From positions 1 through 56,372 of the IMG/VR virus record IMGVR_UViG_3300034111_001022: DNA of 56,372 nucleotides, one strand, 5' to 3'. Positions 4,515 through 53,073 of the stretch are shown in pieces. Position numbers and translations under genes: made by a program. The DNA is from a virus. Taxonomy: Duplodnaviria > Caudoviricetes. Under the pieces are notes generated by a model, which worked only from the letters and a program-made list of their open reading frames with translations, did no database searches and was not told where the DNA came from. Position 1 is the first letter of the stretch; each line of letters starts with the position of its first letter.

Positions 4515-7500
4515 TTAACAATTCCAACGTTTTAATGAGGCCGCCTTACGAGTTGGGTTACCTTGCTCGTCCTTCATCGGCCCCGGCATGCCAGACATTC
4601 TAGCGCAGAATGACTTGCGTCTACCGGCGTCCGCGTCTGTCTTTGGGTGCGGGGCCGGTGCCTTTAGGTTCGAGCCAGTGGCGTTGTTATACTTCGCGCG
4701 GCCCTTTGCAGTCAGCCCGGCGCCTTGTGACACCGGCAACTTCTCGCCTCTGCCTACTGATAAAACAGGGCCGCCTTTAGCGAAGCCTGGTGCGTTATCT
4801 TTAAACTCGTACATCGCATCATAGTCTACCTCGCCACCTTCTGCAAATGCGGGCTCATCTTTTTTATTCCAAAACGGTGACTGCCCACTTGCCTCACGCT
4901 TGTTAGCGCTGCGAATGGCCGTGGCCACTGCGTCTTCAGGAACGATACCGGTCTCACGGATGTAGTTCAAGTCAGCCGGGTGCATCCCCTCAATAATGCT
5001 CGGCATCTCGCGGCCGTCGACATTAATGGAGTACTCGGTCATCACGTCACGGCCGTTAGGCATACGGATCTCGCCCAAGGCACCAGTGTCCTTAGCCTCG
5101 CCAGTCTCACGGTCGCCGTAGTCTTTAAACTCGTACATGGAATCGTAGTCGATATCATCGGTCTCAACCGCGCCACCCTCTGCGTAGTTCGGCTCTTCGT
5201 ACTGCGGCAGCATCTTCGATACGCCACGGCCGTACTCGGCTGATCGTCTTTGTATCTCGGCCTCGGTTGCGCGTCTGCCGCGCTCCTTGATACCAGCCTC
5301 AACGCCGGCCATGTTCTCGTAGTAGTCACCGACGGCGTCGCTCTTAGGACCGGTGAACGGTGAGAAGAAGTAGTCTGTGTACTGGTAGGCCTTGCCCATG
5401 TCTCTAGCCACGTCAGCTGGGATGTCTTGTCTGACGCCGAAGTCGTAGCCACCGCCGTAGTTCAACGCCGCATCAAGCGGTGAGCGGTTCACTCGTGAGT
5501 TGCCGACCGTGTCTAGGTAGTTCTTCTTGAGCTCGCTCGATAGCGCGTCTGGGTACTTGCCGTGCTCGACCGCTTGCTTGTTGTACTGAATGCGATACTT
5601 GGCAGCCTTAGCTAGCAGCTTGGCCTTGTCCATCATTGATAGGCTGGCGAACGGGTCGCTAACCTTGCCGCCCTCTGCGAAGTTCTTGGTGTAGTTGATA
5701 CCCTTGTAGTAAGGCGACACGTTAACGCCAACGCTTGACTGATCGCGTGGGTCGGAACGGTAAACAGATAAGTTCTTGTATTGAGGCGACACGTTAAACC
5801 CTACCGTTGCCTGAGTGCGTGGGTCGGTGCGGTAAGCAGACCAGCCCTTCGCTAGTGGCTGGCGACCAACGCCATACTGCACACCGTCGTCTGTCATGTA
5901 ACGAGCGCGTAGCTCGCTGATGTCGTCACGCTTAATTTTTTGGCCTGGCTGCGTTACGGTGTAGCCGTCGTCGAACGTGTAGGTTCGAGCAGGCAACTTA
6001 AACACTTGGCCCTCTTTGGTAACACCGAAGCCGTACTTGTTTAGGATGTCAACGTCGGTGCTAAAGTTGTAGTGGCTGCCTGACGAGCTCGCACTGTCAA
6101 AGTTGCCGTAGTCACCTGACGCTCTAACGTTCAAGCCACCTTCGTCCATGTGAACTGGTCCGCCGCCAGCGAACTTCTGCTCGCTCTTGACGGCGTACGC
6201 TGGGTTCTTGGCGATAACCAACGGGCCAATCTGTAGTATCTCTTCGGCGCCGGATACAGGCTCCATCGTGTTACGGTCGTAGAAGTAGCCGTGACGCTCA
6301 GGGTCGTATCCAACCTGGACCCACTCACCACTGGCCAAGTTCTCTTGGGCCTTCTTGACCGCGTCCTCTTGGCTTATTGGGTTCCACTCGCCACGGATAA
6401 CAGCGAACGGCGCCTTGGGTCCGCCCTTGGCTACCTTTAACGCCTTGTCCGGTGCGCCTATCATGGTCGCGTTCTTAACTGACGACACTGAGTCGTATAC
6501 CGTCGGCGCGTTCTTGCGGTGAATAGAGTTAACCCACACGCCGTGATCCTTGTAGGCTGGGATGTCTAGGCGTAGGTCTGTCTGCTCACCAGCTGGGATC
6601 TCTGATGCCTTGCCGTACATTGGTTGCTTGTTCTTGGTGAGCGCGCGCATCGCGTCTTCGTATGTTGCTGGTGCTGGCACAAACGAGTACGGCTCAACTG
6701 GCTTGAGTGAGTTGACTAACCTGTCGTACTCGCTCGCGGTGATCTCGCCTCTGTCTAACTGATTGGCCGCCTTTGTCAGCTCAGGGACGCGCTTGGTGAC
6801 GTCCTTGAAGTTCATGTCTATGCGACTGACAGCCGGCGCAGCCTTGGGTGTTATGTACTGCTCGGCCATCTCACGTAAGCCCTTGGCTGCAGCCTTGACC
6901 ACACCGCCACCAGCGAACGCAGGTAGGCCTTGGTTGATCACATAGTCGCGTATCTCTGGCGTAATCTCGAAGCCCATCTGCTCAGACACGTTATTGCCAA
7001 GCTGCACGCCGATAGGTTTAACGCGCTCCGTTACACCCATTGATTTCAGTATATCGTTGGCAGTGCTGGGTATAATCTGATCGTAGTATGTCTTCATGCC
7101 CTCGCCGCCGACTCTAAGTGCATCAGCGTTATAAACTTCGCCACCAAGCCCTTGGGCTTCAATTTGTTTAGCCAAGTCGCTGCCGATGTAATCAGACACC
7201 GAACTCATAGGGATGTTCTTACCGATGCTATGCTCACCGCCACCTGGCAACGTTGCGAGCATTGATACTGTGTTGTCTGGATTCTTTGTAACCATTAGCT
7301 CATCAATCTGCTTAGCTAAGTTGTAACGATCAGCCTGCTGCGCGCCAGTAGTCCAGGCCAAATGGCTTTGCCCCTCGTCAACCGCGCGCTCGATGGCCTT
7401 CTTCAAGCCCAACGCTGTCCAGTCGCCTGTGTCTTCGACGTATGGGCCACGAGGTATGCCTCTTAGCTGAGGTATTTCACGTAGCGCTGCCCGCAATTCG

Positions 7501-8312
7501 CGAACCTTTTGAACCATAGGTGTAGAATCCTCACCGCGATTACGCATAGCCATGACTTCTAAATCTGCATTTTCTAACTCATTTTCCAATTGAATGCGAC
7601 GTTCTGCATTCAAGTCTGGTTCTAAGAACCCTTTCTTCCTACCCTGCTGCGCCCAGTCTGACTGCAGCTCCTCTAGGAACAGCACGTCCTTGTTGTCAGG
7701 TGTAAGCTTAATGTTGGTGCGCAGGTGAGCCAAGATGTTGGGCTCGTCGAAGTGACCAGAACTAAAGTTAGATGGGTCACGGAGTACATCGCTAAGGTTG
7801 GGCTGATCATACTCGCGTACCACCCAATCAGGATTGTTGTTGAGCTTCTCAAGCGTGCGCGCCGGTATGGGCATTGTGCCACTAGCAAGGACGGTTCCGT
7901 TAGCGTCTTTGATTTCAAAGGCCTTATCCATTCTTATTCTAGGTGAGCTTGTGTTTGGAGGCAGATGGATGAGCGTCTCGGTGTAGTCCTCGCCGCCTGG
8001 TAACACGTACTTGCCGTACTGGGTCTCATCGATACCATAACCATCAGCGCGGAGGTTCTTGGTATTAATCTTGGGTGAGTTCTCTTGAATGTGTTTGACG
8101 ATGTCCGCCTTGGACACCTTAGACTGCCGCGCTAGTAGCTCGTCTAGCTTGATCGCTAGTGCTTCTTTCTTCGCGGCCTTGGGTGCGTTAGCCTTGATGT
8201 ACGCTGCCCACTGTGAGCTGGGCATGGTCTCCATCTTATGCGCGATGATCGTTCTCTCTAGTGGAGAGAACATGTTCTTGATCTTGTTGAGTGCGCTAAC
8301 TGGGTTTGGCAT
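4515..8312 (-). CDS. Large modular (polyvalent-type) protein; segments delimited by seven AxGG-type motifs
   Basis: 1265 aa; N-terminal region has LFLEELQSDW, recalled from phage large polyvalent proteins; last segment resembles a small basic phage protein (RRKSFCARM...RWNC). Confidence 0.7.
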   Translation of the reverse strand: MPNPVSALNKIKNMFSPLERTIIAHKMETMPSSQWAAYIKANAPKAAKKEALAIKLDELLARQSKVSKADIVKHIQENSPKINTKNLRADGYGIDETQYGKYVLPGGEDYTETLIHLPPNTSSPRIRMDKAFEIKDANGTVLASGTMPIPARTLEKLNNNPDWVVREYDQPNLSDVLRDPSNFSSGHFDEPNILAHLRTNIKLTPDNKDVLFLEELQSDWAQQGRKKGFLEPDLNAERRIQLENELENADLEVMAMRNRGEDSTPMVQKVRELRAALREIPQLRGIPRGPYVEDTGDWTALGLKKAIERAVDEGQSHLAWTTGAQQADRYNLAKQIDELMVTKNPDNTVSMLATLPGGGEHSIGKNIPMSSVSDYIGSDLAKQIEAQGLGGEVYNADALRVGGEGMKTYYDQIIPSTANDILKSMGVTERVKPIGVQLGNNVSEQMGFEITPEIRDYVINQGLPAFAGGGVVKAAAKGLREMAEQYITPKAAPAVSRIDMNFKDVTKRVPELTKAANQLDRGEITASEYDRLVNSLKPVEPYSFVPAPATYEDAMRALTKNKQPMYGKASEIPAGEQTDLRLDIPAYKDHGVWVNSIHRKNAPTVYDSVSSVKNATMIGAPDKALKVAKGGPKAPFAVIRGEWNPISQEDAVKKAQENLASGEWVQVGYDPERHGYFYDRNTMEPVSGAEEILQIGPLVIAKNPAYAVKSEQKFAGGGPVHMDEGGLNVRASGDYGNFDSASSSGSHYNFSTDVDILNKYGFGVTKEGQVFKLPARTYTFDDGYTVTQPGQKIKRDDISELRARYMTDDGVQYGVGRQPLAKGWSAYRTDPRTQATVGFNVSPQYKNLSVYRSDPRDQSSVGVNVSPYYKGINYTKNFAEGGKVSDPFASLSMMDKAKLLAKAAKYRIQYNKQAVEHGKYPDALSSELKKNYLDTVGNSRVNRSPLDAALNYGGGYDFGVRQDIPADVARDMGKAYQYTDYFFSPFTGPKSDAVGDYYENMAGVEAGIKERGRRATEAEIQRRSAEYGRGVSKMLPQYEEPNYAEGGAVETDDIDYDSMYEFKDYGDRETGEAKDTGALGEIRMPNGRDVMTEYSINVDGREMPSIIEGMHPADLNYIRETGIVPEDAVATAIRSANKREASGQSPFWNKKDEPAFAEGGEVDYDAMYEFKDNAPGFAKGGPVLSVGRGEKLPVSQGAGLTAKGRAKYNNATGSNLKAPAPHPKTDADAGRRKSFCARMSGMPGPMKDEQGNPTRKAASLKRWNC

Positions 8313-8343
8313 AGCATTCCCTAAAGAGGATTGGCTTTTCGCG

Positions 8344-8372
8344 ATTTTAACCCAGTATTAATTAAAATACAA
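8344..8372 (-). promoter_or_regulatory. Sigma70-like promoter for the 1265-aa gene
   Basis: TTGTAT-N17-TAAAAT in the AT-rich gap after terL. Confidence 0.5.
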
Positions 8373-9914
8373 CTACACAGCGTACGGATTACTTCTTTCT
8401 TTTGGTGGCGCTTGTCCGTACTCAACCTGGTTGCCGTCGATGCTCAGCATGCGCGTGTCACGCAAGTAAATCAACGCCTGCGTCATGCTGTCGACCATGT
8501 CGTCGTGCTCGCCGTTAGGGAAGATCATCAGCTCGTGCATCATCGCGTCTGTCCACGCCGGTGCGCGGCCTGGGTTCTTCTTCGACTCAGGCAAGTACAC
8601 CAGGCCAGACTCAAGCAAGGGCGCAACCGCGTGAACGCGTGTCACCTTGTCTGCGCGACCAGGGTTGTACGGATGGCAAGGCACACCGCTGCGACGCAAG
8701 TCTTGCATAAGACTTATGCCCGATCCCTTCTCCTCGATCAGCACCACGTCGACCGTCTTGTCCTTGTCGCCGTACTTGGACCGGTACTCGTCGCCCATCT
8801 TCTTACGCAGGTCAGGGTAACCGAGGTGCTCCTTCCAACAGTCAAGCAGCACGACCGCCTTGCCGCCCTCGGTGTTGATCACGCCCCAGGTGCTGCAGGC
8901 CGTTGGGTCGTTCTGTGTCTTCTCGGTGAAGGCCGTGTCGTAAGACTGCACAACGTACATGAGCTTAGGTAACGGCTTATCTGCTGGCAGCAGCTTGAAC
9001 CAGTCACGCTTGATGATACCACCAGCGGCCGGTGACGGACGTTGCTGCAACTGGCCAGACGTGCCGTACTCGCCAAGCTGTACCTTCAGCTCGTCAATCT
9101 CTTTCATGCCGAAGCGACCCTTCCACAGCAGCTCACCGTCCTCGGTGCGTGGGTCGTAGTTGCCTAGCGTGGTCTTGCTGCGTCGACCCTTCTCGAACTG
9201 AGCTGGCAAGCAGAGGTGATCCCAGCCGCCCTGTCTGAGTATGTGGCCAGAGAGGTCGTTCTCGTGCAGCCGTTGCATCACGATCACCTTGCAGCCGGTC
9301 TTTGGATTGTTGAGACGCGTGCTCATCGCCTGGTCCCACCACTCAAGCGTGGACTCGCGCATCGTGTCTGACTGCGCCTCCATCGAGTTGTGCGGGTCAT
9401 CGACAACCAGCACGTCACCGCCGTGGCCAGTGGTCGACGCGCCAACAGAGGTCGCGAACCGGTAGCCGGACTTGTCGTTCTCGAAGAAGGTCTTAGCGTT
9501 CTGGTCACCAGTCAGCGCGAACCTGTGGCCCCAGCGCTCTTGGAACCAGGGCGACTCGATCAGTCGGCGGCACTTGAGTGAGTCACGCACCGACAGACTG
9601 ATCGCGTACGAGGCGAACAGCCAACGGAACTGCGGCTGCGTCATCCACACCCACACCGGCCACATCACAGCGACCTGTATCGACTTCATGTGCCGAGGTG
9701 GCACGTTGATGAGCAGGTTGCGTATCTCGCCGCGCGTGACGGCCTCCAGGTGCTCGGAGATGGTATCGAGGTGCCAGTTGCCGATGTAAGGCGTGCCAGG
9801 CTCGATGACGTGCCAGGCCATCTTAGTGAACTCGCTCAATGACCGCTCAGCGCGGCGCCTGTCGTGCTCAAGCTGGATGTCCCGCAGCGGGATCACGTTG
9901 GACATGTCAATCAT
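8373..9914 (-). CDS. terL: Terminase large subunit
   Basis: INVPPRHMKS Walker A, VLVVDDP Walker B, QSYDTA and HDDMVDS nuclease motifs. Confidence 0.95.
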   Translation of the reverse strand: MIDMSNVIPLRDIQLEHDRRRAERSLSEFTKMAWHVIEPGTPYIGNWHLDTISEHLEAVTRGEIRNLLINVPPRHMKSIQVAVMWPVWVWMTQPQFRWLFASYAISLSVRDSLKCRRLIESPWFQERWGHRFALTGDQNAKTFFENDKSGYRFATSVGASTTGHGGDVLVVDDPHNSMEAQSDTMRESTLEWWDQAMSTRLNNPKTGCKVIVMQRLHENDLSGHILRQGGWDHLCLPAQFEKGRRSKTTLGNYDPRTEDGELLWKGRFGMKEIDELKVQLGEYGTSGQLQQRPSPAAGGIIKRDWFKLLPADKPLPKLMYVVQSYDTAFTEKTQNDPTACSTWGVINTEGGKAVVLLDCWKEHLGYPDLRKKMGDEYRSKYGDKDKTVDVVLIEEKGSGISLMQDLRRSGVPCHPYNPGRADKVTRVHAVAPLLESGLVYLPESKKNPGRAPAWTDAMMHELMIFPNGEHDDMVDSMTQALIYLRDTRMLSIDGNQVEYGQAPPKERSNPYAV

Positions 9915-10444
9915 ACGTCGGTCACCACCTTAAGACCATCTAGGCTCTCGTCTGAGGCCTTCGCGGTTAGTCTGAGGTACTCGGCTAGCTCGTCATCAGT
10001 TAAGCGGCTCAGCTTGATCTCACTAGCCAGCGAGCCGTTGATGTTGATGTTCTTGCTCTCGACCTTGTCAACGTAGAGGCCGCTGACCTTCCCTCGTAGC
10101 ATCTCGCCGTTGATGGCAGCAGAGTACTGATCCTTGGCTGCAGCGAGGTCACTCAGCTGGCCCAACTTGATTAGGTGCTCTTCGAGTGTGATCTGCACCT
10201 TCTTGATCACAGGAGCGCGTAGCTCGGCAATCCTTGCAATTAGCTTGGGTTTTGACATGAGCTCATTTGCAGCTCGATAAATGGTTGAATCCTTGTAGCG
10301 ACTGGTGTCGTAGGCCGCTCTGTAGGCATCTGACTGGTTGTTGCCCCTGACAATGTTCTGACAGAAGACCTCCTCTTGCGCGGTAAGACCGCTTGGCATT
10401 AGCGCCTTTGACGCTGTCTTGCGTGACTCACTTACTTCACTCAT
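9911..10444 (-). CDS. terS: Terminase small subunit
   Basis: LTAQEEVFC...NQSDAYRAAY...ANELM HTH-type terS pattern, overlaps terL start. Confidence 0.85.
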   Translation of the reverse strand: MSEVSESRKTASKALMPSGLTAQEEVFCQNIVRGNNQSDAYRAAYDTSRYKDSTIYRAANELMSKPKLIARIAELRAPVIKKVQITLEEHLIKLGQLSDLAAAKDQYSAAINGEMLRGKVSGLYVDKVESKNININGSLASEIKLSRLTDDELAEYLRLTAKASDESLDGLKVVTDV

Positions 10445-11783: not shown

Positions 11784-12242
11784 ATGAAACTATCAAGCGC
11801 AACTAAAATAGCTACGACACTAATGAAAGAACATGGCTTGTTGACCCAAGGTTGGAAGTTCACTTACGACAGAGCCGTTCGCAGGTTCGGCTGCTGCAAC
11901 TACAGCAACAAGACAATCAGCTTAAGCAAACACCTGGTAGAGCTTAACGATGAAAAGCAAATGATTGACACCATGCTGCATGAGATTGCTCACGCGTTGG
12001 TTGGCAAGGGCCACGGCCACAATCGTACCTGGCAGCGTCAGGCTGTAAGCATCGGCTGCAGTGGAACTAGATGCTACGGCAGCGAGGTTGTTAAGCCAAA
12101 AGCTAAGTACAAGCTTACCTGCCCTAACTGTGACCGCGTAACAACTCGATCAAAGCTTCGCAGCGGACTTGCTTGTGGTGCCTGCTGCAGACAATACAAC
12201 GGCGGAAAATACTCTGCTGCTTACCAATTTATAGTTCACTAA
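11784..12242 (+). CDS. SprT-like zinc metalloprotease
   Basis: RRFGCC..TISLS, MLHEIAH..GH.H..W, C-terminal CPNC/CGAC zinc ribbon. Confidence 0.85.
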   Translation: MKLSSATKIATTLMKEHGLLTQGWKFTYDRAVRRFGCCNYSNKTISLSKHLVELNDEKQMIDTMLHEIAHALVGKGHGHNRTWQRQAVSIGCSGTRCYGSEVVKPKAKYKLTCPNCDRVTTRSKLRSGLACGACCRQYNGGKYSAAYQFIVH

Positions 12243-15845: not shown

Positions 15846-16229
15846 ATGTCACTAGAAGATAACATCAAAGAGCTAACCCTAGCCATCCACCGCCTTACTG
15901 TAGCGCTAGACGTTACAACCGCGAGCGTAACGCCGGCACCGACCGAGACCGTCTACGAGGTAGAGCTAACGGCCCCGGCGCCTAAGAAGCCTAAGGCCGA
16001 GCTTAAGGTTGTACAGAACGATCCGCCGGCAGCCGAGAAGGTCAAAGATACACCAGAGCAAACGCACGACAAGCTAAAGGCGCTGTGCCTGGACCTAGTG
16101 CGCAAAGACCCAGCGAACAGAGACAAGATTAAGGCAGTGATCTCTAGCTTTGGCGCCACCTTGGTGAGCGACGTCGCAGCCGACAAGCTACCATCATTGG
16201 CTAAGCAGCTATTGGAGCTAGGAGCATGA
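15846..16229 (+). CDS. Conserved hypothetical protein of the replication module
   Basis: AAAGGA RBS; Pro/Ala linker and helical C-terminus; overlaps exonuclease start. Confidence 0.75.
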   Translation: MSLEDNIKELTLAIHRLTVALDVTTASVTPAPTETVYEVELTAPAPKKPKAELKVVQNDPPAAEKVKDTPEQTHDKLKALCLDLVRKDPANRDKIKAVISSFGATLVSDVAADKLPSLAKQLLELGA

Positions 16230-17350
16230 GCACCGCCCACGCAAAGCTAAGCGCTAGCGGTAGCGCGAAGTGGTCCCTCTGTGCCGGCAGCGTGTTCGCC
16301 GAGAAGGACTACCCCAACACAACCTCTGTCTTTGCCGAGGAGGGCACGGCTGCTCACGAGCTGGCTGAGATGCTGCTGCGAGGCGACAGTTGGAATAACG
16401 TAATTGGCGAAACGCTGTTAGAAAGCAACGTGGTTGTCACCCAAGACATGTACGACTACGTTATGACCTACGTCAGCTACGTCAACTCAATCAGCGGCGA
16501 GCTGTTCGTCGAGCAGCGCGTGGACTTCAGTCACATCGCGCCAGAGGGGTTCGGCACCAGCGACGCCATCGTGATCAACGACGAGACCATGACCATCGTC
16601 GACCTTAAGTACGGCAAGGGCGTACGCGTTGACGCAGAGAACAACACGCAGGGCATACTGTACGCCCTCGGTGCGGTGAACGACTACGGCATGCTGTTCA
16701 ACATCAAGACTATTAATATAGTTATTGTGCAGCCGCGCCTCGATCACATCTCAGAGTGGTCCATTGGCATCGACGAGCTTAACCGCTGGGGTGAGCGCCT
16801 AAAGCAAGCCGCCGAGCTAGCGTTAACTGACAACGCGCCGAGGGTGCCAGGTGAGAAACAATGCCAATGGTGTCGAGCCAAGGCCACCTGCCCAGCGCTA
16901 GCCAAGCTAACCGAGAGCACGCTGATGACCTCGTTCGATAACCTAGACACCAGCAAGCCGGAGCAGCTGACAGACGAGCAGCTTAAGACGGCGCTAGACA
17001 ACAAGAAGCTGATTGTCTCATGGTTCGACGCCATCGAGACCTTAGTGACCGACCGCCTAAGCACCGGCCAAGGGTTCAACGGTTACAAGCTGGTAGCCGG
17101 TAGGGCCAACCGTGCCTGGCGTGATGAGGTAGCGACAGCGGCCGCACTGCGTGACGTGCTAGGCGAGGACACGCTCTACACGCGCAAGATCATCTCACCG
17201 GCGCAGGCTGAGAAAGAGCTGGGCAAGTCACGCGCTGAGTTGCTGGACGACCTAGTCACCAAGCCAGAGGGCGCGCCAACGCTAGTGCCGGAGTCAGATA
17301 AGCGTCCTCCGGTCAACGTCAGTAAAAATGACTTTGACTTAATTAATTAG
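16226..17350 (+). CDS. DUF2800-family PD-(D/E)xK (Cas4-like) exonuclease
   Basis: HAKLSAS..W..C, AEEGTAAH, GFGTSD, IVDLKYG, CQWCRAKATC. Confidence 0.9.
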   Translation: MSTAHAKLSASGSAKWSLCAGSVFAEKDYPNTTSVFAEEGTAAHELAEMLLRGDSWNNVIGETLLESNVVVTQDMYDYVMTYVSYVNSISGELFVEQRVDFSHIAPEGFGTSDAIVINDETMTIVDLKYGKGVRVDAENNTQGILYALGAVNDYGMLFNIKTINIVIVQPRLDHISEWSIGIDELNRWGERLKQAAELALTDNAPRVPGEKQCQWCRAKATCPALAKLTESTLMTSFDNLDTSKPEQLTDEQLKTALDNKKLIVSWFDAIETLVTDRLSTGQGFNGYKLVAGRANRAWRDEVATAAALRDVLGEDTLYTRKIISPAQAEKELGKSRAELLDDLVTKPEGAPTLVPESDKRPPVNVSKNDFDLIN

Positions 17351-17999: not shown

Positions 18000-19769
18000 A
18001 TGTTTGTAATCGATACCGAGGTCTACTCGGATTATTTTCTACTCTCGATGCTGCGCCTAGATGATGGCAAGATCCGTCACTTTGAATTTCACGCAGACGC
18101 CAAGCTTGATGTAAATAAAATCACGGCACTGTTTAAGACAGAGACCGTTATCAGCTTCAACGGCAACAGCTACGACATACCTATTATCAGTGCAGCCCTA
18201 GCTGGCTACACCAACCAAAAGATTAAAGACCTATCCGACAGTATCATTAAGAGCAACCAGCCGAGCTGGACGATACTGCGTGCGCATAAGTTTGAGCTAC
18301 TAAAGACAGACCACATCGACCTAATCGAGGTCGCCCCTGGGCGCTCTAGCCTTAAGATCTACGGCGGCCGCATGAACGCCCCTAAGATGCAAGACCTACC
18401 GATTGACCCTAGCAGCAGAATATCCCCAAGCCAACGAGCTGAGCTACGCCAGTACTGCGAGAACGACCTACACACGACGGCCATGCTGTACAAGGCGCTG
18501 AAGCCGCAGATTGACTTGCGCGTCACAATGAGCAAGCAGTACGGCATGGACTTACGCAGTAAGAGCGATGCGCAGATTGCCGAGACGGTGATCATCAGCG
18601 AGCTGACTAAGATCACGAACGAGGGCTACGGCAAGGTAACGCTGAAGGACAACACGACCTTTAACTACACCGACCCTAAGATTGTTAACTTCACCGACAC
18701 GGCGCTTAACCTACTGATCAACAGCCTGTGCGAGCACAAGTTCACGCTAGGGTTGAACGGCGCGGTGCAGATGCCGGACTGGCTACGCAACACTAAGATT
18801 AATATCGGCACGGCCGAGTATCAGATGGGCATCGGTGGCCTGCACAGCTGCGAGAAGTCGCAGTACATCAAGGCAGACGACGAGAACATACTGCTAGAGC
18901 TAGACGTGGCCAGCTACTACCCGAACATTATCCTGCAGCAGCGATTGGCGCCTAAGAGTATGGGCGCGCCGTTCTTGCGCGTGTATCAGACAATAGTCAC
19001 TAGGCGCCTAGAGGCCAAGCACCGTGGCGACAAGGTAACGGCCGACGTGCTTAAGATTGCCGTCAACGGTAGCTTCGGCAAGCTTGGCAGTAAGTACAGC
19101 GCGCTGTTCGCGCCTGAGCTACTGATACAGACAACCATCACCGGTCAGCTTGCGCTGCTTATGCTGATCGAGGCCGTAGAGCTAGCGGGCGCCAGGGTAG
19201 TCAGCGCCAACACCGACGGCGTGGTGATCCTATGCCCACGCAAGCTAGAGCACAAGATTGAGGTGGTGGCGTTCGACTGGATGCTTCGTACCTCGTTTGA
19301 CCTAGAGCGGACAGACTACCGAGCACTAGCCAGCCGTGACGTGAACAGCTACGTGGCCGTCAAGCTAGACGGAAAGACCAAGGGCAAGGGCGTCTTCGCT
19401 AGCACTAGCCTGGCTAAGAACCCAGACGACCCGATCATCGCCCACGCGGTGGCCCAGTACGTCGCGCACGAGATCCCGCTAGAGATAACGATACGCAACT
19501 GCCGTGACATCACGCAGTTCATTACCATACGACGCGTCCAGGGTGGCGCCACGTGGCAGGGCGAGTACCTAGGTAAGGCGGTGAGGTTCTATCACAGCAA
19601 CGCCGTACCGAGCGCGCAGTGCATTCACTACGCTAGTAACAGTAACCGCGTACCGAACTCAGCGGGTGCGCGACCATTGATGGAGTTGCCAGACACGTTC
19701 CCGACGGACGTTGACTACAACTACTACCTGGTTGAGGCTGAGAAACTTTTATGTGAGGTAGGATTGTGA
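18000..19769 (+). CDS. DNA polymerase, family-B-like, with 3'-5' exonuclease
   Basis: IDTE, FNGNSYD, YCEND exonuclease motifs; LDVASYYP, KIAVNGSFGK, NTDG polymerase motifs. Confidence 0.85.
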   Translation: MFVIDTEVYSDYFLLSMLRLDDGKIRHFEFHADAKLDVNKITALFKTETVISFNGNSYDIPIISAALAGYTNQKIKDLSDSIIKSNQPSWTILRAHKFELLKTDHIDLIEVAPGRSSLKIYGGRMNAPKMQDLPIDPSSRISPSQRAELRQYCENDLHTTAMLYKALKPQIDLRVTMSKQYGMDLRSKSDAQIAETVIISELTKITNEGYGKVTLKDNTTFNYTDPKIVNFTDTALNLLINSLCEHKFTLGLNGAVQMPDWLRNTKINIGTAEYQMGIGGLHSCEKSQYIKADDENILLELDVASYYPNIILQQRLAPKSMGAPFLRVYQTIVTRRLEAKHRGDKVTADVLKIAVNGSFGKLGSKYSALFAPELLIQTTITGQLALLMLIEAVELAGARVVSANTDGVVILCPRKLEHKIEVVAFDWMLRTSFDLERTDYRALASRDVNSYVAVKLDGKTKGKGVFASTSLAKNPDDPIIAHAVAQYVAHEIPLEITIRNCRDITQFITIRRVQGGATWQGEYLGKAVRFYHSNAVPSAQCIHYASNSNRVPNSAGARPLMELPDTFPTDVDYNYYLVEAEKLLCEVGL

Positions 19770-20764
19770 AATACTTATCGGTTTGTAGTGGAATAGAGGC
19801 TGCGTCAGTAGCATGGCATCATATGGGATGGGAGGCCGTTGGGTATTCAGAGATTGAAAAGTTTCCAAGCCAACTGTTAGAACATCATTACCCAAACGTC
19901 ACTAATTACGGCGACATGACAAAATTTAAGGAGTGGAATATAAATGAACCAGTTAACCTTTTGGTCGGAGGAACCCCCTGTCAATCCTTCTCAGTCGCAG
20001 GACTCAGAAAAGGATTGGAAGACCCTCGTGGAAACCTCATGCTTACCTATCTCGCAATGGCTGACCACTTTAAACCCAAATGGCTTCTATGGGAAAACGT
20101 ACCAGGAGTACTCTCTAGCAACGGAGGACATGACTTCGCAGCCTTACTTCAAGGGATGGTTGAATGCGGGTATGGGGTCGCCTACAGGGTTCTTGACGCT
20201 CAACATTTCGGAGTGCCACAAAGACGCAGGCGGGTGTTCGTTGTCGGATGTCTTGGAGACTGGCGAAGTGCTGCCAAAGTACTTTTTGAGTCAGAGAGCT
20301 TGTGCAGGGATATTAAACCGAGCAGAAAAACACAACAAAAAGATGCCAGCAATGCTAATAGCAGCATTGAAGAATGCGTAGCTTTAGATGAAAGAAATGT
20401 CAGAATGTTTAGCAATGAAAATTTAAAGACATTCCCAAGTTTAACTGCAACAGATTATAAAGGCGCAAAATCTATTTGTTTTAAAGTTCGTGGCGGTTGT
20501 GCTGGAGGTGGTAAAGGTTATTTAGGTAGTGAAGAAAAAGCATTTACTATTAGCACGGCGCAAGATCAGCAATTGTTTAATGATATGCGTGTTCGTAGGC
20601 TAACTCCTATGGAATGTGAACGCCTACAAGGATTTCCTGATAACTACACTAACACACCTACATCAAGCGACACTACGCGCTATAAAGCTTTAGGTAACTC
20701 TATGGCTGTGCCTGTAATGAAATGGATAGGCGAAAGGATAAACGAGGTAAATTCGCAATGCTAG
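19766..20764 (+). CDS. DNA (cytosine-5) methyltransferase
   Basis: CSGIEA, GGTPCQSFS, ENV, QRRRR, RRLTPMECERLQGFP, LGNS motifs. Confidence 0.95.
   Translation: MKYLSVCSGIEAASVAWHHMGWEAVGYSEIEKFPSQLLEHHYPNVTNYGDMTKFKEWNINEPVNLLVGGTPCQSFSVAGLRKGLEDPRGNLMLTYLAMADHFKPKWLLWENVPGVLSSNGGHDFAALLQGMVECGYGVAYRVLDAQHFGVPQRRRRVFVVGCLGDWRSAAKVLFESESLCRDIKPSRKTQQKDASNANSSIEECVALDERNVRMFSNENLKTFPSLTATDYKGAKSICFKVRGGCAGGGKGYLGSEEKAFTISTAQDQQLFNDMRVRRLTPMECERLQGFPDNYTNTPTSSDTTRYKALGNSMAVPVMKWIGERINEVNSQC
19944..20381 (+). CDS. Overprinted ORF inside the methyltransferase (M.EcoHK31I beta-subunit-like)
   Basis: 145-aa +1-frame ORF with its own TAAGGAG RBS; ends SLSDVLE...KYFLSQRACAGILNRA. Confidence 0.65.
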   Translation: MNQLTFWSEEPPVNPSQSQDSEKDWKTLVETSCLPISQWLTTLNPNGFYGKTYQEYSLATEDMTSQPYFKGWLNAGMGSPTGFLTLNISECHKDAGGCSLSDVLETGEVLPKYFLSQRACAGILNRAEKHNKKMPAMLIAALKNA

Positions 20765-25097: not shown

Positions 25098-25433
25098 ATG
25101 ACAATAAAACTACTAATACGGTTAATAGAAATAATTATTAACCCATCACTTTGGTTTTCATACAACGAGTGGGTTAAACCATTTTGTAAACAACATGCCG
25201 TTTACGTTGAAAACGATCAACAGAAGTCGCTTCGATACAAATTTATTATTTGGCGGCAACTTAATCGTATACGAGCCCGCCACTGCGCAGTTTACTTAAA
25301 TATAGCGTACCCAATATATTGTGAGTACGAATTAGGCAAACGAGCAATTCCAAGTGACGTTATTTCTTTTTTCGAGCGTCGTGAGATCTTGCTTTTTGTT
25401 CTACAGAAACAAGTTTCGGTGTTTTCGGATTAA
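25098..25433 (+). CDS. Possible XRE-like HTH protein
   Basis: AAGGAG RBS; WRQLNRI...CAVYLNIAYPIYCEYELGKRAIP resembles an XRE HTH. Confidence 0.5.
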   Translation: MTIKLLIRLIEIIINPSLWFSYNEWVKPFCKQHAVYVENDQQKSLRYKFIIWRQLNRIRARHCAVYLNIAYPIYCEYELGKRAIPSDVISFFERREILLFVLQKQVSVFSD

Positions 25434-28400
25434 CATTATAGCTAGGGTAGTCTTTTTTATCGACAAGACTTGATTCATATGTGCCAAACTTGAATTTTTT
25501 ATTTGCGTCTTTTCCGTAGATATTATATAGGGTATGCTCAATGTCTCCAGTCGAGTCGGTCATAAAATTAAAGATAACAGCTGATCCATCTTGTGGTCGA
25601 TGTTGTATTGCAACATCCTCCCCTAGTATTTTGCCAAGTGTAACAATATCTTTTTCAGTAACATTATTAACCTTAATGGCTGTACTACCAGCTGGTTTTT
25701 TTTGTGGAACAAAACGAACAACACTCATCGCTTCTTGATCTGTGTCACTACCAAATTGAGCAAGTTGTGCATTGTAGTCTGATAATGGTCCTAATTTTCT
25801 AGGTAATTTAACGGAGTACGCTCGATTAAACTCTATTCCTTTATTACCACCCCAAGCACCTTGACCAGTCTCGACGTTATAGTTACCTAATCCTGACGTA
25901 CGCAACGCCTCTTGTGCGCGCTCATCTGCTAACTCTAAACCTGCTGGGTCGTTTGCTAATTCGCCAGTATTTCTCATGCGGTACGTGTTTTGTAATAAGC
26001 CTGGCGACGTTGATTCCATCACAGCCACTGGTGGGTTCATTACTTTTCTTAGTAATGGGCTAGCTGCTTTATAGGCAGCTTTACCAGCTTTTACAAATGG
26101 GACCTGCATACCAGCTAAGTTAAGAAAATCAAACGCGTTAACATCACCGTATACGTTTTCATACGTCATCCCCCCTGTAGCCGGGCTAGGTACCCACTTA
26201 CCACCACGTACAAAGCCAGGTTGTCCAGAGGTAGTGTAGTCATATACGGTTTCTGGTAGTTGACCAAATAAAAGATCAGTGCCTATTTTTAATTCACCGT
26301 TTACTACATCGGACTCTCTTGTTGGTCTAGAAGAGGCTACGATTGAGCCAACAACAGGCACGTAGTTTGGATCAATACCCATCGAAGAAAGTGTTTTACC
26401 TGTAAAAGATGGCGCCTTATCTAACGCTGTTCGCAAATATTCTAAACCCTTAGATGCAAGGCGCCCAGTGCTACCAAGGTATTTATCTGTCAATCTGTCT
26501 CTTTCAGCGACCATATTGTGTACAAGATTACCCCGGTCTGAAATGTTTGCGCGATCTAACGTTGTCCTTGGAGGCACATCCATAAAACTGTTGCTAGCAT
26601 CTAACACATAACCATACGGGTTATTTACACGAGAACTACCATCAATGTATTTTGAACTATTAGCAAGATCAACCTTGCCGCCATCATCGTAGCCTTGTAC
26701 TAGGCCGCCTTCTGCCAAGTGTGTTTTTTTCAATATGACTAAGTCTCTAGCTGTTTCAGGTGATACACCAAGGCGATTTGCAGTGTCGCCAATTAATTTT
26801 GATATTAGTTCTAATTTAGGTGCGCCTATCGGCGATGTTACACCCGTGGCTCCAGAGCCTGACCCCCACACAACTGCTTGCGCAGGTACACTTTCTAGCT
26901 CCATTGGTTTTGCAATTTTCTCTTCCCACCAAGGGCCGAGTGACACCATTTCTGGTACCGAAGCACTTGCGTTTGGTAAAACTTCTACTCCTTTTTTAGT
27001 TCTTGCTCCACGTACATCGGGTAGACCTACTAATCTTGACCAGTGCGCGTCACCTACGGGCCAGCTTGTTTGAAATCCTGTTTCTGGTACACCTGACGCG
27101 GCTATGTAGCTCGGCACTTTTGCAGAGCCCATATCTAAAAAACCAGACTCAAGGTACTTACTCATTGGCAACCCATGTGCTGTGGAATGATATGGATGCC
27201 CAAGAATATTTTGCATATCTGCCGGGCCAGTTCCGGCTTTACGGCCATATTTTAAAAAGTCAGAAAAACGATTTTCGGAATCTAACCAATTTGCAGCGGA
27301 GCCTCTATTAAGTTCAACTAATACTTCTGACCCTGGTGATGCCATACCAGTAAGCGTGTTAAATCTGTTATATTCTTTAATTGCGTTTTCTAAACCATAC
27401 AGTTCAACATACCTATTAAAAAGCGGGTCCATTGTGTACCATGACGCCATGCCTTTATATAACTCTGGTGAATTTTTTGATTCACCAATAATATCTTGTA
27501 TCCTTTGTACATTTCTTGGGTTCATTACCTCTTCTGCGTGACCTGCCCCAGTAGCATTTGGCGCTGCTTTAAATGGACGTTCAGTAATATTCCCCTTACG
27601 CCTGCCTTGTTCTGTTATATTAAATAAATCATCTCTAGTTACGCCAAATAATCTTTTAAGTAATGGCGATTCTTCCTCAACGCGAGATGTTGCTTCCGCA
27701 ACTAGTTGTTTAGGGTCGGAATATATGCCTGGGTACGCTACTCGTTTTGGACGCATTACCGTTGCTGATTTTTTAGCGGCGACGTCTGCTGCTTTTTTAG
27801 CAGCTGCTTTTTTTGCAAGGATTGCTGCAACAGCACCACCAGCCCCAAACTTAGCCGGTTCTTGTTCTGGTTCTCTACTGTCACGGTAGTAGTTTAAGGC
27901 AGGGGCAGCGAGTGACGTTAAGCCACCGATGACTTTAAGGCCTGCACCAACGGGGCCAATCGGTGGAATCATAGACAACGCACCGCCAACAGCACCAACG
28001 CCACTGATTGCTGCACCAGGGTAGTCGCCTTGCTTAAAGCGCTCACGGGCTTCAACAACATCTAAGCCAGCACCGGCACCCGGCAACATAGACATACCAG
28101 GTATTCTGCTCAAGTAACGAGCGACGGTTGTACCAACACCAGGGGCTTTATTAGCCGCAGCCTTAGCGTAGTCTGCTTTAGCCACATCTAAATTAGCTTG
28201 CGCTATGGTCTTGCCGGTTGGGCCTTTCTCTGTTAGGTTGCGTAAGCGATCCGCCTCTTTTTGAGCAGCGCCTTCTGCTTTCTCTGCAGCCTTGATTAAA
28301 CGTTGGTGCTCTGCATCAGCGGCGGCCAACTCTTTTTGTGCAGCAAGCTGCTCTGGATTATAGACAGACGCGCCAGAGTATTTGTCAGGAACAATTAGGC

Positions 28401-32060: not shown

Positions 32061-33892
32061 TATCGTAATCCGCCTTTCATATAAGCTAATGGGGATTTAG
32101 CATCTGGGCTGAATTTACCCTTAGCCAATGCCCTGCCTTTTTGTTGTCTAATACCTTGCCGCATTTGGTCTAGCATTGCCGCACCTGCTTTGGTTGAACC
32201 GTTGCCTAATAATGCCACAGTTTCGGCGTCAATAACGTACTCGCCGTCAGATAATCTTGCCTCTATGCTGTCTGATCTGCCAGTGCCTGGACCTTGTACG
32301 GCGTATGACATCTGGCTTAACGCTCCCTGTGGTTTTCTATTTGCTCGACCGCCTTTAGCTTTTTGCACAGTATATGTTGGCGCAGTATAAGTCTGCTCAA
32401 TACCTTGCGACAAGTTAGCCATCAGTTTTTCATATTCTGGAGTGCCTTGTGCTGGGAAAGTAGTCATGTTTGGGCTAAATGTGTAATTGGTCAGCGAGCG
32501 CAGCATGCCTTCTTTTTGTTGTGCAGTTAATGCAGGGTCTTGCATGATTGCATCATTTGCTTGTTGTGGTGTTTTACCAGCAATCAAACTGCCGATCAAA
32601 CCTAATTTAGCAATGTCGCCAAAACTAACCCCTGTCGATGGCACAGCACCAGCATTAGCAGTTTGAGCTAATGCGCCTGTAGCTTGCGGAGTTGGAGTCG
32701 GTGCTAAATTTGCAGCGTAACCGCCTGTGTTGGAAGTAATGTCTAGCTTATTGCCAACTTGACCGTCACCATATGTTCCAGTATTTGTTGCAGCACCTAA
32801 ATCAAATTTTCCTGTAGCTGAATTATACATACCATCTTCAGGACTTACAGTAGGCGCACCTTTAACTGTGTCTGACGCTTGATTGACAGGATCCCCTGGG
32901 AATAAATTAGAGGCCAAGCTAGCTAATCCAGAAGCACCTGCGCTAGTTGCAATACCTTTTAAACCTTGACCAGTATTTGCCGCTGCTTGCGCACCAATAG
33001 CCATGTTTTGTGCCATGCCTTCTGGCAATACATTTCCATATTTATCAACAAGACCAGGAGCGTAGTTAGCTAAAGCCCCTGCAGTTAGTGCACCAGTTAT
33101 TGGGTTTTTACCTGCCAATGCCGATGTTGCACCGCCTAGTATGCCAGAGCCAAGCACTTCGTTGCTTAGTCCTCCAAAATTGCTAATAGCACTATTCGCG
33201 TAAGAACCTAGACTTGCTGTTAGTCCTTTGCCTAGACCTCCTGGACCTAGTGCTGCGCCTAAGCCACCTAATATTGCACCGCCAAATCCACCGCTCTTAG
33301 CCCCTTGGATAGCACCATATGCTGCACCTAAATATGGTCCTACCACTGGTATAAAATTAAGAGCTATCGGTGCAACAGCTTTTACAATAGACTTAACTGC
33401 TTTTTTAAATTTCTTGAAAAGCCCAAACTCCATTAAACCTGTTTGTGGATTGATAGTACCTGAACCGCCTAAGCGTTTAAGGAACATCGCTTCGTGCGGA
33501 CTGATGTGAGCTAGCATGGTATCTGAATCACGACCTTGTGACTGAACTTGCTGCGCAGCTTGTGATAACCCTCCCCGCGCAAATCCTTGACCACCACGTT
33601 GTTGTAGCCCTTGTAAGGCAAGCAGGAAGATAGCAATAAACAACGGATCAAACTGTTCTGGGAAGTCCCCTTCATCAAGCACACCCGCCTGAATAGTCTC
33701 TTGAATGACACTCTCATAGCTTTCAGGATTCTCAGCAACCTGACTAAACAGGTTAATCATCTGCGTAATCACCTCTGGCGTGACGTCGGGGTCTTGTCCC
33801 AGTGCCTGCGCAGCTTGGTCCACCATCTGTTTAAGATTGTCTGGTCCTAATTTCTGTGCGACCAGTTTGATTAAATTGTCTTTGTTTGCCAT
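32060..33892 (-). CDS. Putative internal virion/ejection protein
   Basis: Start re-assigned to MANKD (AGGGG RBS); glycine-zipper hydrophobic region; GPGTGRSDSIEARLSDGEYV domain. Confidence 0.65.
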   Translation of the reverse strand: MANKDNLIKLVAQKLGPDNLKQMVDQAAQALGQDPDVTPEVITQMINLFSQVAENPESYESVIQETIQAGVLDEGDFPEQFDPLFIAIFLLALQGLQQRGGQGFARGGLSQAAQQVQSQGRDSDTMLAHISPHEAMFLKRLGGSGTINPQTGLMEFGLFKKFKKAVKSIVKAVAPIALNFIPVVGPYLGAAYGAIQGAKSGGFGGAILGGLGAALGPGGLGKGLTASLGSYANSAISNFGGLSNEVLGSGILGGATSALAGKNPITGALTAGALANYAPGLVDKYGNVLPEGMAQNMAIGAQAAANTGQGLKGIATSAGASGLASLASNLFPGDPVNQASDTVKGAPTVSPEDGMYNSATGKFDLGAATNTGTYGDGQVGNKLDITSNTGGYAANLAPTPTPQATGALAQTANAGAVPSTGVSFGDIAKLGLIGSLIAGKTPQQANDAIMQDPALTAQQKEGMLRSLTNYTFSPNMTTFPAQGTPEYEKLMANLSQGIEQTYTAPTYTVQKAKGGRANRKPQGALSQMSYAVQGPGTGRSDSIEARLSDGEYVIDAETVALLGNGSTKAGAAMLDQMRQGIRQQKGRALAKGKFSPDAKSPLAYMKGGLR

Positions 33893-33905
33893 TTTATTAC
33901 CCCTA

Positions 33906-34139
33906 TTATGCCTGCAGTGCCTTGCACAAGCCGTCTGCCCAATCATTCCATTCAAAAAATGCGTACGGGCTTGGGACGTTATACCCCGCTAACCCTGGGG
34001 TTGTTACGAATTGTACACCCCAATTTTGCCAATAATCATCATTATCTAACCGCTGAATAACAATATACTCGGCTAAATCATACGATACTTGATCCGCCCA
34101 ATCGCGCAATCCCATATTTTTTGGCAGCGTAATAATCAT
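33906..34139 (-). CDS. Small Trp-rich putative virion protein
   Basis: Overlaps nozzle gene stop; 77 aa. Confidence 0.65.
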   Translation of the reverse strand: MIITLPKNMGLRDWADQVSYDLAEYIVIQRLDNDDYWQNWGVQFVTTPGLAGYNVPSPYAFFEWNDWADGLCKALQA

Positions 34140-47989: not shown

Positions 47990-47997
47990 ATTAATTC

Positions 47998-51119: not shown

Positions 51120-51433
51120 TAAAATCTCTTCTTAGCGTATAAATAACCAGTGTCATCTTCAGTGATGAGATACTCTTCACCATCCTGAGTGATGATACCG
51201 TACTGATCTTGTGTTAAAGGTAAGTCTGGACGTACAAAAGGCAGTGTAATCTGATCAGCTGGGCGAGGGGCCAAGCGATAAGGATCGTAGTTATCTAAAT
51301 CTTCTTTACACACCATCAACCCAGGTGAATTTGGGTCAGAATAAAGCTCAGCAAGGGGCATTTTGCGACTACAACGAGCGCACAATGCAACACCTAAGGT
51401 AGAATTTCCAGTGGTATCAAGAAAAATAGCCAT
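51119..51433 (-). CDS. Cys-containing putative virion protein
   Basis: CARC...VC motif; start re-assigned to MAIF. Confidence 0.6.
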   Translation of the reverse strand: MAIFLDTTGNSTLGVALCARCSRKMPLAELYSDPNSPGLMVCKEDLDNYDPYRLAPRPADQITLPFVRPDLPLTQDQYGIITQDGEEYLITEDDTGYLYAKKRF

Positions 51434-51435
51434 AT

Positions 51436-52422: not shown

Positions 52423-52502
52423 AATATTCCTCTAGTTGATGGCCGCTGTTACAGCAAGCCCAATCTTTTCAGCTTATTATACTACGCCAAGTTAAAAAAA
52501 TA

Positions 52503-52652
52503 CTATTTTTTAGCTGTTTTGGCAGCTTCAGCAAAGTCTTTCTTTGTAGGTGCACCCTTAGAGCCTGGCTTTCTCATCTTTTCACCAGAACCTTCTTCGA
52601 TTCTAGTTTTTTTAGCGTGAATGTTTGCGTATAAACCTTTTTTAGCAGCCAT
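52503..52652 (-). CDS. Small basic protein (49 aa)
   Basis: AAGGAG RBS at MAAKKGLYANIHAK...GAPT. Confidence 0.7.
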   Translation of the reverse strand: MAAKKGLYANIHAKKTRIEEGSGEKMRKPGSKGAPTKKDFAEAAKTAKK

Positions 52653-52662
52653 CGTTTGCTCC

Positions 52663-53073
52663 TTATTTTTTAACCTTACCGCCGCACATAAGCATTGGAA
52701 CGCGTGGATCACGACCGGCAGCCATAGCTGGGCCCTTAACAACGCGCTTTTGAACCAACTCTTCACGCTGCATACGTGGCGTTTCGGTCTTTTCGTGCTT
52801 CATCATCGCTGATTTAGACGCATAACGCTCACCAGTAGCCTTTTCCATCACGCTGCCGCCTTTTTTAAGCTTGGTAAGGGGTTTGCCTGGGTGTTGTGCT
52901 TTTTCGTGCTTGTGGATTGATTCTGCGATCATCTTTTTGTCTTGTTTCATGTCAGCTTTAATGTCGCCACCTTTAGCGTACATTTTAGTTGCGCAGCCGC
53001 CTTCAGCGTAAGCTTTGCCTTTCATCTTACCTGCTGAACCAAAATCAAACTCTTTTACATATGTACATGCCAT
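52663..53073 (-). CDS. Lys/Met-rich protein with four xxxGG motifs
   Basis: YAEGG, YAKGG, LKKGG, LMCGG; AGGAG RBS. Confidence 0.75.
   Translation of the reverse strand: MACTYVKEFDFGSAGKMKGKAYAEGGCATKMYAKGGDIKADMKQDKKMIAESIHKHEKAQHPGKPLTKLKKGGSVMEKATGERYASKSAMMKHEKTETPRMQREELVQKRVVKGPAMAAGRDPRVPMLMCGGKVKK

Follow-up and report, generated by a model that had tools for sequence, protein, structure and literature searches.

The window analysed here, the complete 56,372-bp contig of virus record IMGVR_UViG_3300034111_001022, represents a short-tailed phage (podophage) and encodes five proteins that share a conserved short linear motif, [FYM]-A-x-G-G-x-V, which closes or joins independently folding modules of proteins leaving the virion through the tail. 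Its carriers are a polyvalent-type cargo protein of 1265 amino acids (aa), three ejection proteins of 1353, 878 and 631 aa (610 aa from the probable start of the last) and a protein of 136 aa. Sequence comparison indicates that the motif is the flank of an old composite element, composed of [FY]AxGG, 5-25 residues, GPGTxxSDSIxAxLSxGE[FY]V, approximately 30 residues and a further [FY]AxGG, which is shared with tape-measure proteins, and in the tape measures of phages such as lambda and T5 the motif may be a cutting site. As to its function in general, we lean, tentatively, towards a proteolytic processing site.

The motif was noticed in an original prediction made from the DNA alone, which listed 21 copies, and every one of these was recovered at its position on the minus strand, with seven copies in the 1265-aa, three in the 1353-aa, four in the 878-aa, three in the 631/610-aa and four in the 136-aa protein. 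MDEGG, KAKGG and AAKGGLI among them are degenerate, and YAEEGYV lacks the Gly-Gly pair. Enrichment over composition had been set beforehand as a test, and it was present when expected counts were obtained by shuffling residues within each protein: across 45 open reading frames (ORFs; 16,694 aa) the strict pattern [FYLM]A.GG.[VI] was observed nine times compared with 0.29 expected, none of 300 shuffles reached nine matches, and all nine lie inside the five named proteins (4,263 aa; 0.087 expected there). The core [FYLM]A.GG was found 11 times in the ORFs of the window (2.5 expected), and the loose form [FYLM]..GG.[VIL] 20 times overall (4.2 expected) and 14 times in the five proteins (1.3 expected). 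Two further claims of the prediction held as well, namely that capsid, portal, terminase and replication proteins contain no strict match and that the codons differ among the copies of the window. In orthologues the codons vary synonymously at every conserved position, 58 instances comprising 31 distinct 21-mers that encode 24 distinct peptides; with several synonymous codons at each conserved position, conservation is therefore at the protein level.

Among related phages, the complete phage ctYwJ313 contains five strict copies versus 0.16 expected, located in an 863-aa ejection-block protein, a portal-adjacent 994-aa protein and a 108-aa protein, while looser copies are found in the corresponding proteins of HMO-2011 (gp25 and gp49) and CRP-9 (gp54) and none in T7 or the T7-like cyanophage S-TIP37. 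A set of 79 viral-contig loci (310,204 aa), chosen by the presence of a relative of the 878-aa protein, yielded 59 strict copies compared with 5.9 expected, of which 15 belong to orthologues of the 631-aa, 15 to those of the 878-aa and four to those of the 1353-aa protein, the remaining 25 being in large ORFs on the same strand that had no BLAST match. No strict copy was present in approximately 63,000 aa of tail and structural orthologues of these loci, nor in approximately 26,000 aa of ORFs on the opposite strand. The 120 polyvalent relatives of the 1265-aa protein (150,045 aa) contain 234 strict copies versus 1.76 expected; 89 of the 120 carry at least two copies, and with the second residue left free the median is three per protein. 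Their consensus reads [FYM]-[AK]-[EKD]-G-G-[AEP]-V, often with a Pro two or three residues before it.

That the motif marks module junctions, the central claim of the original prediction, is borne out by ends of homology, module swaps, break-points and AlphaFold domain edges, most fully in the 1265-aa protein. This protein comprises a constant N-terminal module (approximately residues 1-466), variable modules and a C-terminal DUF6321 domain (1197-1263, Pfam). Translated searches (tblastn) against annotated phages returned separate matches for residues 96-466, 506-734 and 1177-1265, bounded by the copies at 466, 714 and 1177. The module between the copies at 1043 and 1156 (residues 1064-1149) is absent from the relatives at loci L095, L096 and L097, and extra modules are inserted after the 714 copy in L096 and L098. 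In L100/L101, residues 480-713 are deleted from motif to motif, leaving the hybrid copy FGKGGPV. One orthologue has residues 498-840 swapped, and in another the N-terminal module forms an ORF of its own (513 aa) with the motif at its end, the 469-726 module being flanked by two copies. The break-points of homology inside the 120 relatives number 7,346 and are mutually non-independent; 21.2% of them lie within 5 aa of a motif compared with 4.1% of random positions, and the median distance to a motif is 39 aa compared with 156 aa.

Structure prediction and the occurrence of modules in other phages, both proposed at the outset as checks, gave results of the same kind. The AlphaFold2 model of residues 440-1265 (66-row alignment; mean predicted local distance difference test, pLDDT, of 59) contains confident domains at approximately 490-714 and 885-1031 and weaker ones at 1111-1142 and in DUF6321, and all six strict copies are situated in segments of pLDDT<50 at the edges of confident domains. 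Modules do exist as stand-alone genes elsewhere, with ends at the position of the motif: a stand-alone DUF6321 gene of another phage starts with M-A-K-K-S-V, aligned to F-A-K-G-G-P-V, and MEP402 gp68 corresponds to module 1064-1150 and ends where the window protein runs on into the next copy. DUF6321 (window 4515-4724), with its conserved Cys residues (...SFCARM...RWNC), occurs by itself, as a small gene, in many T7-like cyanophages and pelagiphages, and the 73 phage records matched by the 1265-aa query were found mostly through this domain. A direct protein repeat, [FY]AEGG[AE]V...DYD[SA]MYEFKD, flanks the optional module 1064-1149 (window 4764-5186); relatives lacking this module have two or three of these repeats in succession, and some proteins end in ...DYDAMYEFR. 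A Foldseek search of the 440-1265 model against the PDB gave no match at E <= 0.001, and the modules are still unnamed because a multi-domain, partly low-confidence model is a poor query; the ESM Atlas provided no usable look-alike for residues 1-466, and tblastn of module 725-876 against the phage collection no match.

The supposition that the carriers are virion-internal or ejected proteins was likewise upheld, by a PHROG match to 'DNA ejection protein', an N-terminal SLT domain and a portal-adjacent protein whose relatives hold polyvalent domains. The putative trio of 631, 878 and 1353 aa has the usual ejection-protein signature of podophages (the PHROG match in the 878-aa and the SLT domain in the 1353-aa protein). 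In many of the 79 loci, homology to the 878-aa protein ends at residues 292-312, where its motif cluster begins, and orthologues carry [FY]AxGGxV at residues 284-370; orthologues of the 1353-aa protein have YAAGG[LK][IV] near residue 523, the end of the conserved region 1-529. In the AlphaFold model of the 610-aa protein, FARGG directly follows an N-terminal domain of pLDDT>86. The AlphaFold2 models have mean pLDDT values of 59-64, a complex prediction in which residues 495-610 of the 610-aa protein were present in triplicate scored 0.04, which speaks neither for nor against self-association, and sequence searches of the 1265-, 631- and 878-aa proteins against solved structures returned chance-level matches only.

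In the 631-aa protein, FARGG is immediately followed by an invariant mini-module, GRxGDTxLAHIxPxEAxxLxRxGGxGxINPxTGLxEF (aa 141-177; 33425-33535, minus strand), which resembles the GEYV core pattern D-[ST]-x-[IL]-A-x-[IL]-x-x-x-E, matches no family and is of low pLDDT. The 136-aa protein had no tblastn match in the annotated phage collection and belongs to a family found at 48 viral loci. Among 17 aligned members the number of N-terminal copies varies and [KA]KGG.V[ML]EKATGE is conserved. The family (loci L155-L184) is small and Lys-rich, with a variable number of YA[EK]GG copies, often a C-terminal Cys, and the invariant block KGG.V[ML]EKATGE.Y.S..AM.KHE..ETPRMQR.

The C-terminus of the 631-aa protein consists of KAKGG (532), the core GPGTGRSDSIEARLSDGEYVIDAETVALLGNGS (~552-580) and YMKGGLR (625) at the very end. 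We defined the composite element as a GxGTxxSDxIxAxLSxGE[FY]V core with hydrophobic-A-x-G-G at most ~55 aa upstream and/or at most ~85 aa downstream, and by this definition the 631-aa protein contains it. PHROG tape-measure families match residues 552-630 with an E-value of 1.3e-7, the C-terminal region has 3,729 database homologues, and the protein's predicted layout as a whole resembles the C-terminal third of a tape measure. Alignment of 99 relatives showed that G107, G108 and L109 of the FARGG copy are invariant, as is nearly every residue of GxGxGRxDxIxAxLSDGEYVxDAETVA. Despite this invariance, the core and its flanks have pLDDT<50 in the AlphaFold monomer.

Beyond this family, its hidden Markov model matched the mycobacteriophage tape measure Douge gp16 twice (970-1003 and 1418-1448), and tblastn identified 245 phage records, most of them annotated as tape measures, in phages of Mycobacterium, Gordonia, Rhodococcus, Klebsiella, Salmonella and Burkholderia. 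A core preceded and/or followed by [FY]AxGG is present in Douge, Sergei, SBP33, GB2A and lambda, and the element also occurs in many prophages. Lambda gpH has FATGG at 733-737, followed by ...RGEFVF... and YATGG at 778-782, so that the original prediction was correct in placing FATGG and YATGG in the processed region of gpH. Of 37 bacterial-genome loci retrieved by means of the family alignment, 33 yielded core instances, 37 in all, and one of these instances looks like a chance match of the regular expression; hydrophobic-x-x-GG lies at most 55 residues upstream in 25 instances (19 with Ala as the second residue, upstream copies with a non-hydrophobic first residue being uncounted) and at most 85 residues downstream in 22.

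None of the copies of Pfam, NCBIfam and PHROGs searched contains a model dedicated to the element. TIGR01541 includes it for lambda-like proteins only: this model spans residues 472-813 of lambda gpH (448.7 bits) and thus FATGG...GEFV...YATGG, while PF09718 covers only 627-701 of gpH and ends before the element. None of the five window proteins reaches either model, and NCBIfam contains no family for the 631-, 878-, 1265- and 136-aa proteins. Lambda gpH and Douge gp16 are both present in the PDB, and the accessible text of the accompanying papers describes only the last 32-42 residues as modelled; the motif and the composite element are therefore without a solved structure. In HMO-2011 (L005 38772-41060), ctYwJ313 (L009 31242-34226) and CRP-9 (L004 41038-45225), a longer form of the element, GG...DPVSGNDVPPG...EVRDDIPAQLSEGEFVxPADVVR, is found in the portal-adjacent protein and not in the ejection protein; HMO-2011 gp49 begins right at it, and ctYwJ313 has a 380-residue module and FAKGGIV before it.

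Our preference for a processing site, which remains short of an even chance, arises because this reading joins the joint-to-joint modularity, the interchange of fused and stand-alone modules and the cleavages known from T5 and lambda. The motif would lie in an exposed linker and be cut by a protease encoded elsewhere, be it an enzyme of the host or one of the phage that has escaped recognition; with T5 as a guide, the cut would fall between the hydrophobic residue and Ala. Modules would be chained for packaging and then released or re-shaped during assembly or after injection, and what has long been known as cleavage of tape measures, gpH to gpH* in lambda and pb2 to pb2* in T5, would be one and the same process. 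The cassette pattern would arise because selection keeps the joint, so that modules could be inserted, deleted or exchanged only from joint to joint. Polyvalent proteins have, on other grounds, been proposed to undergo processing to separate products, with an embedded zincin-like metallopeptidase, present in ~36% of the class, as the proposed enzyme (according to the accessible text of PMC5512222).

T5 pb2 is reported to be cleaved 'after R1127', as determined by mass spectrometry, between a hydrophobic segment and what is called a 'metallopeptidase motif' (Linares et al. 2023, PMC10038345). The bond in the sequence record is ...FVPR↓AEGGMMYPG..., directly before A-E-G-G, and A-x-G-G occurs only twice in the 1219 residues; as this register was noticed after the fact, it is suggestive and not proof. 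Lambda gpH loses a C-terminal piece of ~14 kDa 'from the glycine-rich region', which is where FATGG lies, and the 2025 Ur-lambda paper describes this cleavage, found in 1974, as still without a mapped site or known enzyme (PMC12617516). A cut at F733↓A734 would produce a piece of 12.6 kDa and a cut at 712-720 one of 13.8-14.4 kDa, sizes that gel-based estimates cannot separate. The T5 and lambda tape measures share with the 631-aa protein a hydrophobic Gly-rich stretch, A-x-G-G, GE-x-x-x-V and a C-terminal tail. Unlike them, the short-tailed phage studied here has up to seven copies per protein in five proteins, including a cargo protein unconnected with tail length, and it has Phe or Tyr where T5 has Arg. 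In P22, the host enzyme OpdA removes the first 20 residues of the ejection protein gp7 (note in the record) at ...YPE↓KGGKGG..., immediately before K-G-G-K-G-G; the site is N-terminal and occurs once, unlike a recurring joint, and it has no aromatic-Ala. The sequence GE-x-G-x-E, proposed as a metallopeptidase for T5, was rejected as such, since the His of T5 is replaced by Phe or Tyr in the other phages compared and the zinc site is thus not conserved.

A number of observations weigh against a processing site. No protease co-occurring with the motif was found. In Pfam and PHROGs scans of the window, which covered 45 ORFs of at least 100 aa, each against at least one of these libraries, the only peptidase-like gene detected encodes the SprT-like ORF, and no homologue of it is present in the compared loci of CRP-9, HMO-2011 and ctYwJ313 or in the lambda, T7, T5 and P22 regions compared. 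Since phages of both Proteobacteria and Actinobacteria carry the motif, no one host enzyme suggests itself, and since the motif has no conserved Ser, Thr, Cys or Asn, known self-cleavage chemistry is unlikely. The likeness of the T5 site was judged by eye and not by a scored alignment, its residue before the cut is Arg and not Phe, Tyr or Met, and P22 gp7 is cut one residue before K-G-G, in another register. Some polyvalent proteins, N4 vRNAP among them, are packaged uncut, as told in PMC5512222. Within the 610-aa family, 107 of 441 core motifs are situated 2-12 residues from the C-terminus compared with 9.6 expected (in the polyvalent relatives, 18 of 664 core motifs compared with 7.1); a cut at such copies would remove few residues, and their placement fits a docking tag at the terminus no less well than a cleavage site. 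The mutual dependence of the break-points belongs here too, and the low pLDDT around the copies may in part result from patchy alignments. The SprT-like ORF itself was considered as an obligatory processing enzyme and rejected, being a common phage gene (1124 records) that is absent from those compared loci of motif-bearing relatives.

The original prediction had likened the motif to the Gly-Gly-directed maturation of virion polyproteins by adenovirus- and ASFV-type proteases, and this analogy found no support: no such family was detected among the scanned ORFs, nor any CE-clan or other cysteine protease by Pfam or PHROGs, and T5 is cut before A-E-G-G. The systems share Gly-Gly in a short consensus at joints of virion proteins, and they differ from adenovirus protease and ASFV pS273R in that the only mapped cut in a related context, that of T5, is on the other side of the motif. 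In the adenain consensus the hydrophobic residue is positioned four residues before the end of Gly-Gly, here five.

Many of the facts that weaken processing (no protease, the Arg of T5, no self-cleavage chemistry, the C-terminal copies) favour instead an uncleaved docking or 'tape' motif, a strand-turn-strand peptide that would be ordered only on its partner, and we consider such a role only a little less likely than processing. The partner envisaged would be an adjacent subunit in the ejection conduit, the lumen of portal or tail, or a component of the host envelope, and docking would serve assembly of an internal core before ejection or of a trans-envelope tube after it, junctions and C-termini being the places where exposed peptides fit. 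The invariance of motif and mini-modules in 99 members, combined with their low pLDDT in the monomer, is as expected if they fold on binding, and ...AYMKGGL[RK] stands at the end of 107 of 120 family members, with GB2A, lambda gpH and the 136-aa family ending likewise. A precedent is T7 gp16, the N-terminal residues of which act as a 'molecular tape' stitching gp15 (review PMC8954989). Tandem copies nine residues apart suggest a beta-meander. RTX-like calcium-binding repeats, which share the 9-residue spacing, were considered and dropped, as the Gly/Asp register does not fit. A docking role leaves unexplained why cargo effector modules need the motif at every joint and why T5 is cut at it.

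We regard it as improbable that the motif is a passive flexible linker doubling as a recombination joint, without a function of its own and persisting by descent. Exchange exactly from motif to motif, including the hybrid FGKGGPV of L100/L101, and the location of the motif in low-confidence linkers would suit such a joint. Yet the DNA of the copies differs synonymously at every conserved position, 21 nucleotides are too short and too varied for homologous exchange, and retention of Phe/Tyr, Ala, Gly-Gly and Val in phages of different bacterial phyla would not be expected of a passive linker; the motif is also invariant in 99 orthologues with varying flanks and present at C-termini, where it links nothing. 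Very improbable, finally, is a chaperone-recruitment tag imitating the mobile loop of GroES, by which host GroEL and the GroES-like protein of the phage would fold or hold the large proteins: the phage does encode a Cpn10/GroES homologue, and some copies in ejection proteins have two hydrophobic residues after Gly-Gly (GGLI, GGMV, GGLV). In GroES loops, however, a hydrophobic triplet is required, whereas in most copies, all six strict ones of the 1265-aa protein among them, Gly-Gly is followed by a residue that is small or charged, and the triplet is missing. The aromatic-Ala conserved in the motif is absent from the phage's own loop, and the motif occurs in tape measures of lambda, T5 and actinophages, although no GroES is annotated in the records of lambda and T7 or in the regions of T5 and P22 compared.

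With regard to known systems, the architecture of the 1265-aa protein places it, by our assignment, in the class of 'polyvalent proteins' as characterised in the accessible text of Iyer et al. (2017, PMC5512222). Like these, it is a large multi-module virion protein in the late block beside the portal, here between terminase and portal and portal-adjacent in CRP-9 and ctYwJ313, and its relatives contain ART-PolyVal, LPD23, PcfJ, SLT and GDSL domains (detected among the 120) in changing combinations. It contains at least two unrelated globular domains, with at least three separate confident AlphaFold2 domains in addition to DUF6321, the only Pfam match of the window's own protein, and its modules recur independently in other phages. 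The class differs in its zincin-like metallopeptidase, which is absent here: no HExxH is found in the 1265-aa protein, while 19 of 120 relatives have it and one of the 120 matches DUF6782, a 'putative metallopeptidase'. In the accessible text of PMC5512222 no conserved joint motif is described. A second known system is the lambda-type region covered by TIGR01541 and PF09718, of which only TIGR01541 takes in the element of gpH and neither is reached by the window proteins. Searches of open-access texts, without their supplements, on polyvalent and DUF6321 proteins, on internal virion proteins and on the cleavage of gpH, tape-measure and ejection proteins turned up no description of the motif or the element, and the accessible parts of PMC4819975 and PMC10386132 contain no relevant passage. 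Within these sources, what seems to be new is the motif itself, how widely it occurs and its service as a cassette joint, whereas virion processing sites, docking motifs and polyvalent proteins are known kinds.

The positions of the features are compiled in Table 1. The tail genes are also on the minus strand and the replication genes on the plus strand; the replication block includes a cytosine-5 DNA methyltransferase (19766-20764, +) and a DUF2800/PD-(D/E)XK nuclease (16226-17350, +). The G+C content is 0.48-0.545 over the first 24 kb, with packaging, cargo and replication genes, and 0.42-0.48 over the other 32 kb, with ejection, tail and head genes.

Table 1. Motif copies, their carrier proteins and neighbouring genes in the window.
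Feature	Residue (aa)	Position (nt)	Strand	Remark
Acidic, coiled-coil scaffold-like ORF		142-1068	-	
GroES/Cpn10 homologue		1087-1488	-	between portal and scaffold-like ORF; predicted mobile loop ...KTAGGIIL...
Portal		1998-4505	-	Pfam/PHROGs
1265-aa polyvalent-type cargo protein		4515-8312	-	between large terminase and portal
FAKGGPV	1177	4764-4784	-	start of DUF6321 module
FAEGGEV, then DYDAMYEFKD	1156	4827-4847	-	
YAEGGAV, then DYDSMYEFKD	1043	5166-5186	-	upstream flank of optional module 1064-1149
FAEGGKV	878	5661-5681	-	just before helical domain
Tandem FAGGGPV and MDEGG	714 and 722	6135-6173	-	end of 506-714 module
FAGGGVV	466	6897-6917	-	end of constant N-module; pLDDT<50
Large terminase		8373-9914	-	Pfam/PHROGs
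Small terminase		9911-10444	-	
152-aa SprT-like ORF with HEIAH		11784-12242	+	Pfam SprT-like, E 5e-12
Ejection trio (631, 878, 1353 aa)		33955 down to 25360	-	consecutive
1353-aa ejection protein		25360-29421	-	N-terminal SLT lytic transglycosylase
YDDGGKV (1353-aa)	911	26671-26691	-	
LAEGGLV (1353-aa)	902	26698-26718	-	
FGAGGAV (1353-aa)	525	27829-27849	-	
878-aa ejection protein		29424-32060	-	phrog_4287 'DNA ejection protein' over residues 16-300
AAKGGLI, YAEGGAV, FKRGGMV, YAEEGYV (878-aa)	293-340	31038-31184	-	cluster after conserved N-domain
631-aa ORF		32060-33955	-	probable start Met22, giving 610 aa; order: helical N-domain, FARGG, GDTMLAH mini-module, Gly-zipper hydrophobic region, KAKGG, GEYV mini-module, YMKGGLR
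YMKGGLR (631-aa)		32063-32083	-	C-terminal
GEYV mini-module (631-aa)		~32135-32302	-	
KAKGG (631-aa)		32342-32362	-	
GDTMLAH mini-module (631-aa)		~33425-33535	-	
FARGG (631-aa)		33563-33583	-	
136-aa basic protein		52663-53073	-	head-gene block
YAEGG (136-aa)	22			
YAKGGDI (136-aa)	32			
LKKGGSV (136-aa)	69			
LMCGGKV (136-aa)	128			9 residues from end
Capsid gene		54369-55283	-	head block runs across contig ends, with small genes including the 136-aa ORF

In its widest form, the processing proposal holds that [FYM]-A-x-G-G is a general 'cassette joint' of tail-delivered proteins, a processing signal for a widely available protease or an assembly-triggered mechanism that turns chained modules into separate products. 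We consider this generalisation rather unlikely; if true, the cargo and ejection proteins of this phage group would be true polyproteins, the cut in lambda gpH would be predicted at or beside F733/A734, and the cut in T5 pb2 would be explained. Tape-measure and ejection proteins build the conduit for phage DNA across the cell envelope, and polyvalent proteins bring the first anti-host effectors into the cell; little is understood of how proteins of such length are packed, threaded, cut and put together again. Shared by all these protein classes and placed precisely at the joints of modules, the motif provides a concrete, mutable target in the model phages lambda and T5, a rule by which the boundaries of modules and the injected cargo of metagenomic phages can be predicted, and a natural insertion point for engineering cargo into virions. 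Should it prove to be a docking peptide only, it would still be a new and very widespread interaction motif of the ejection machinery.

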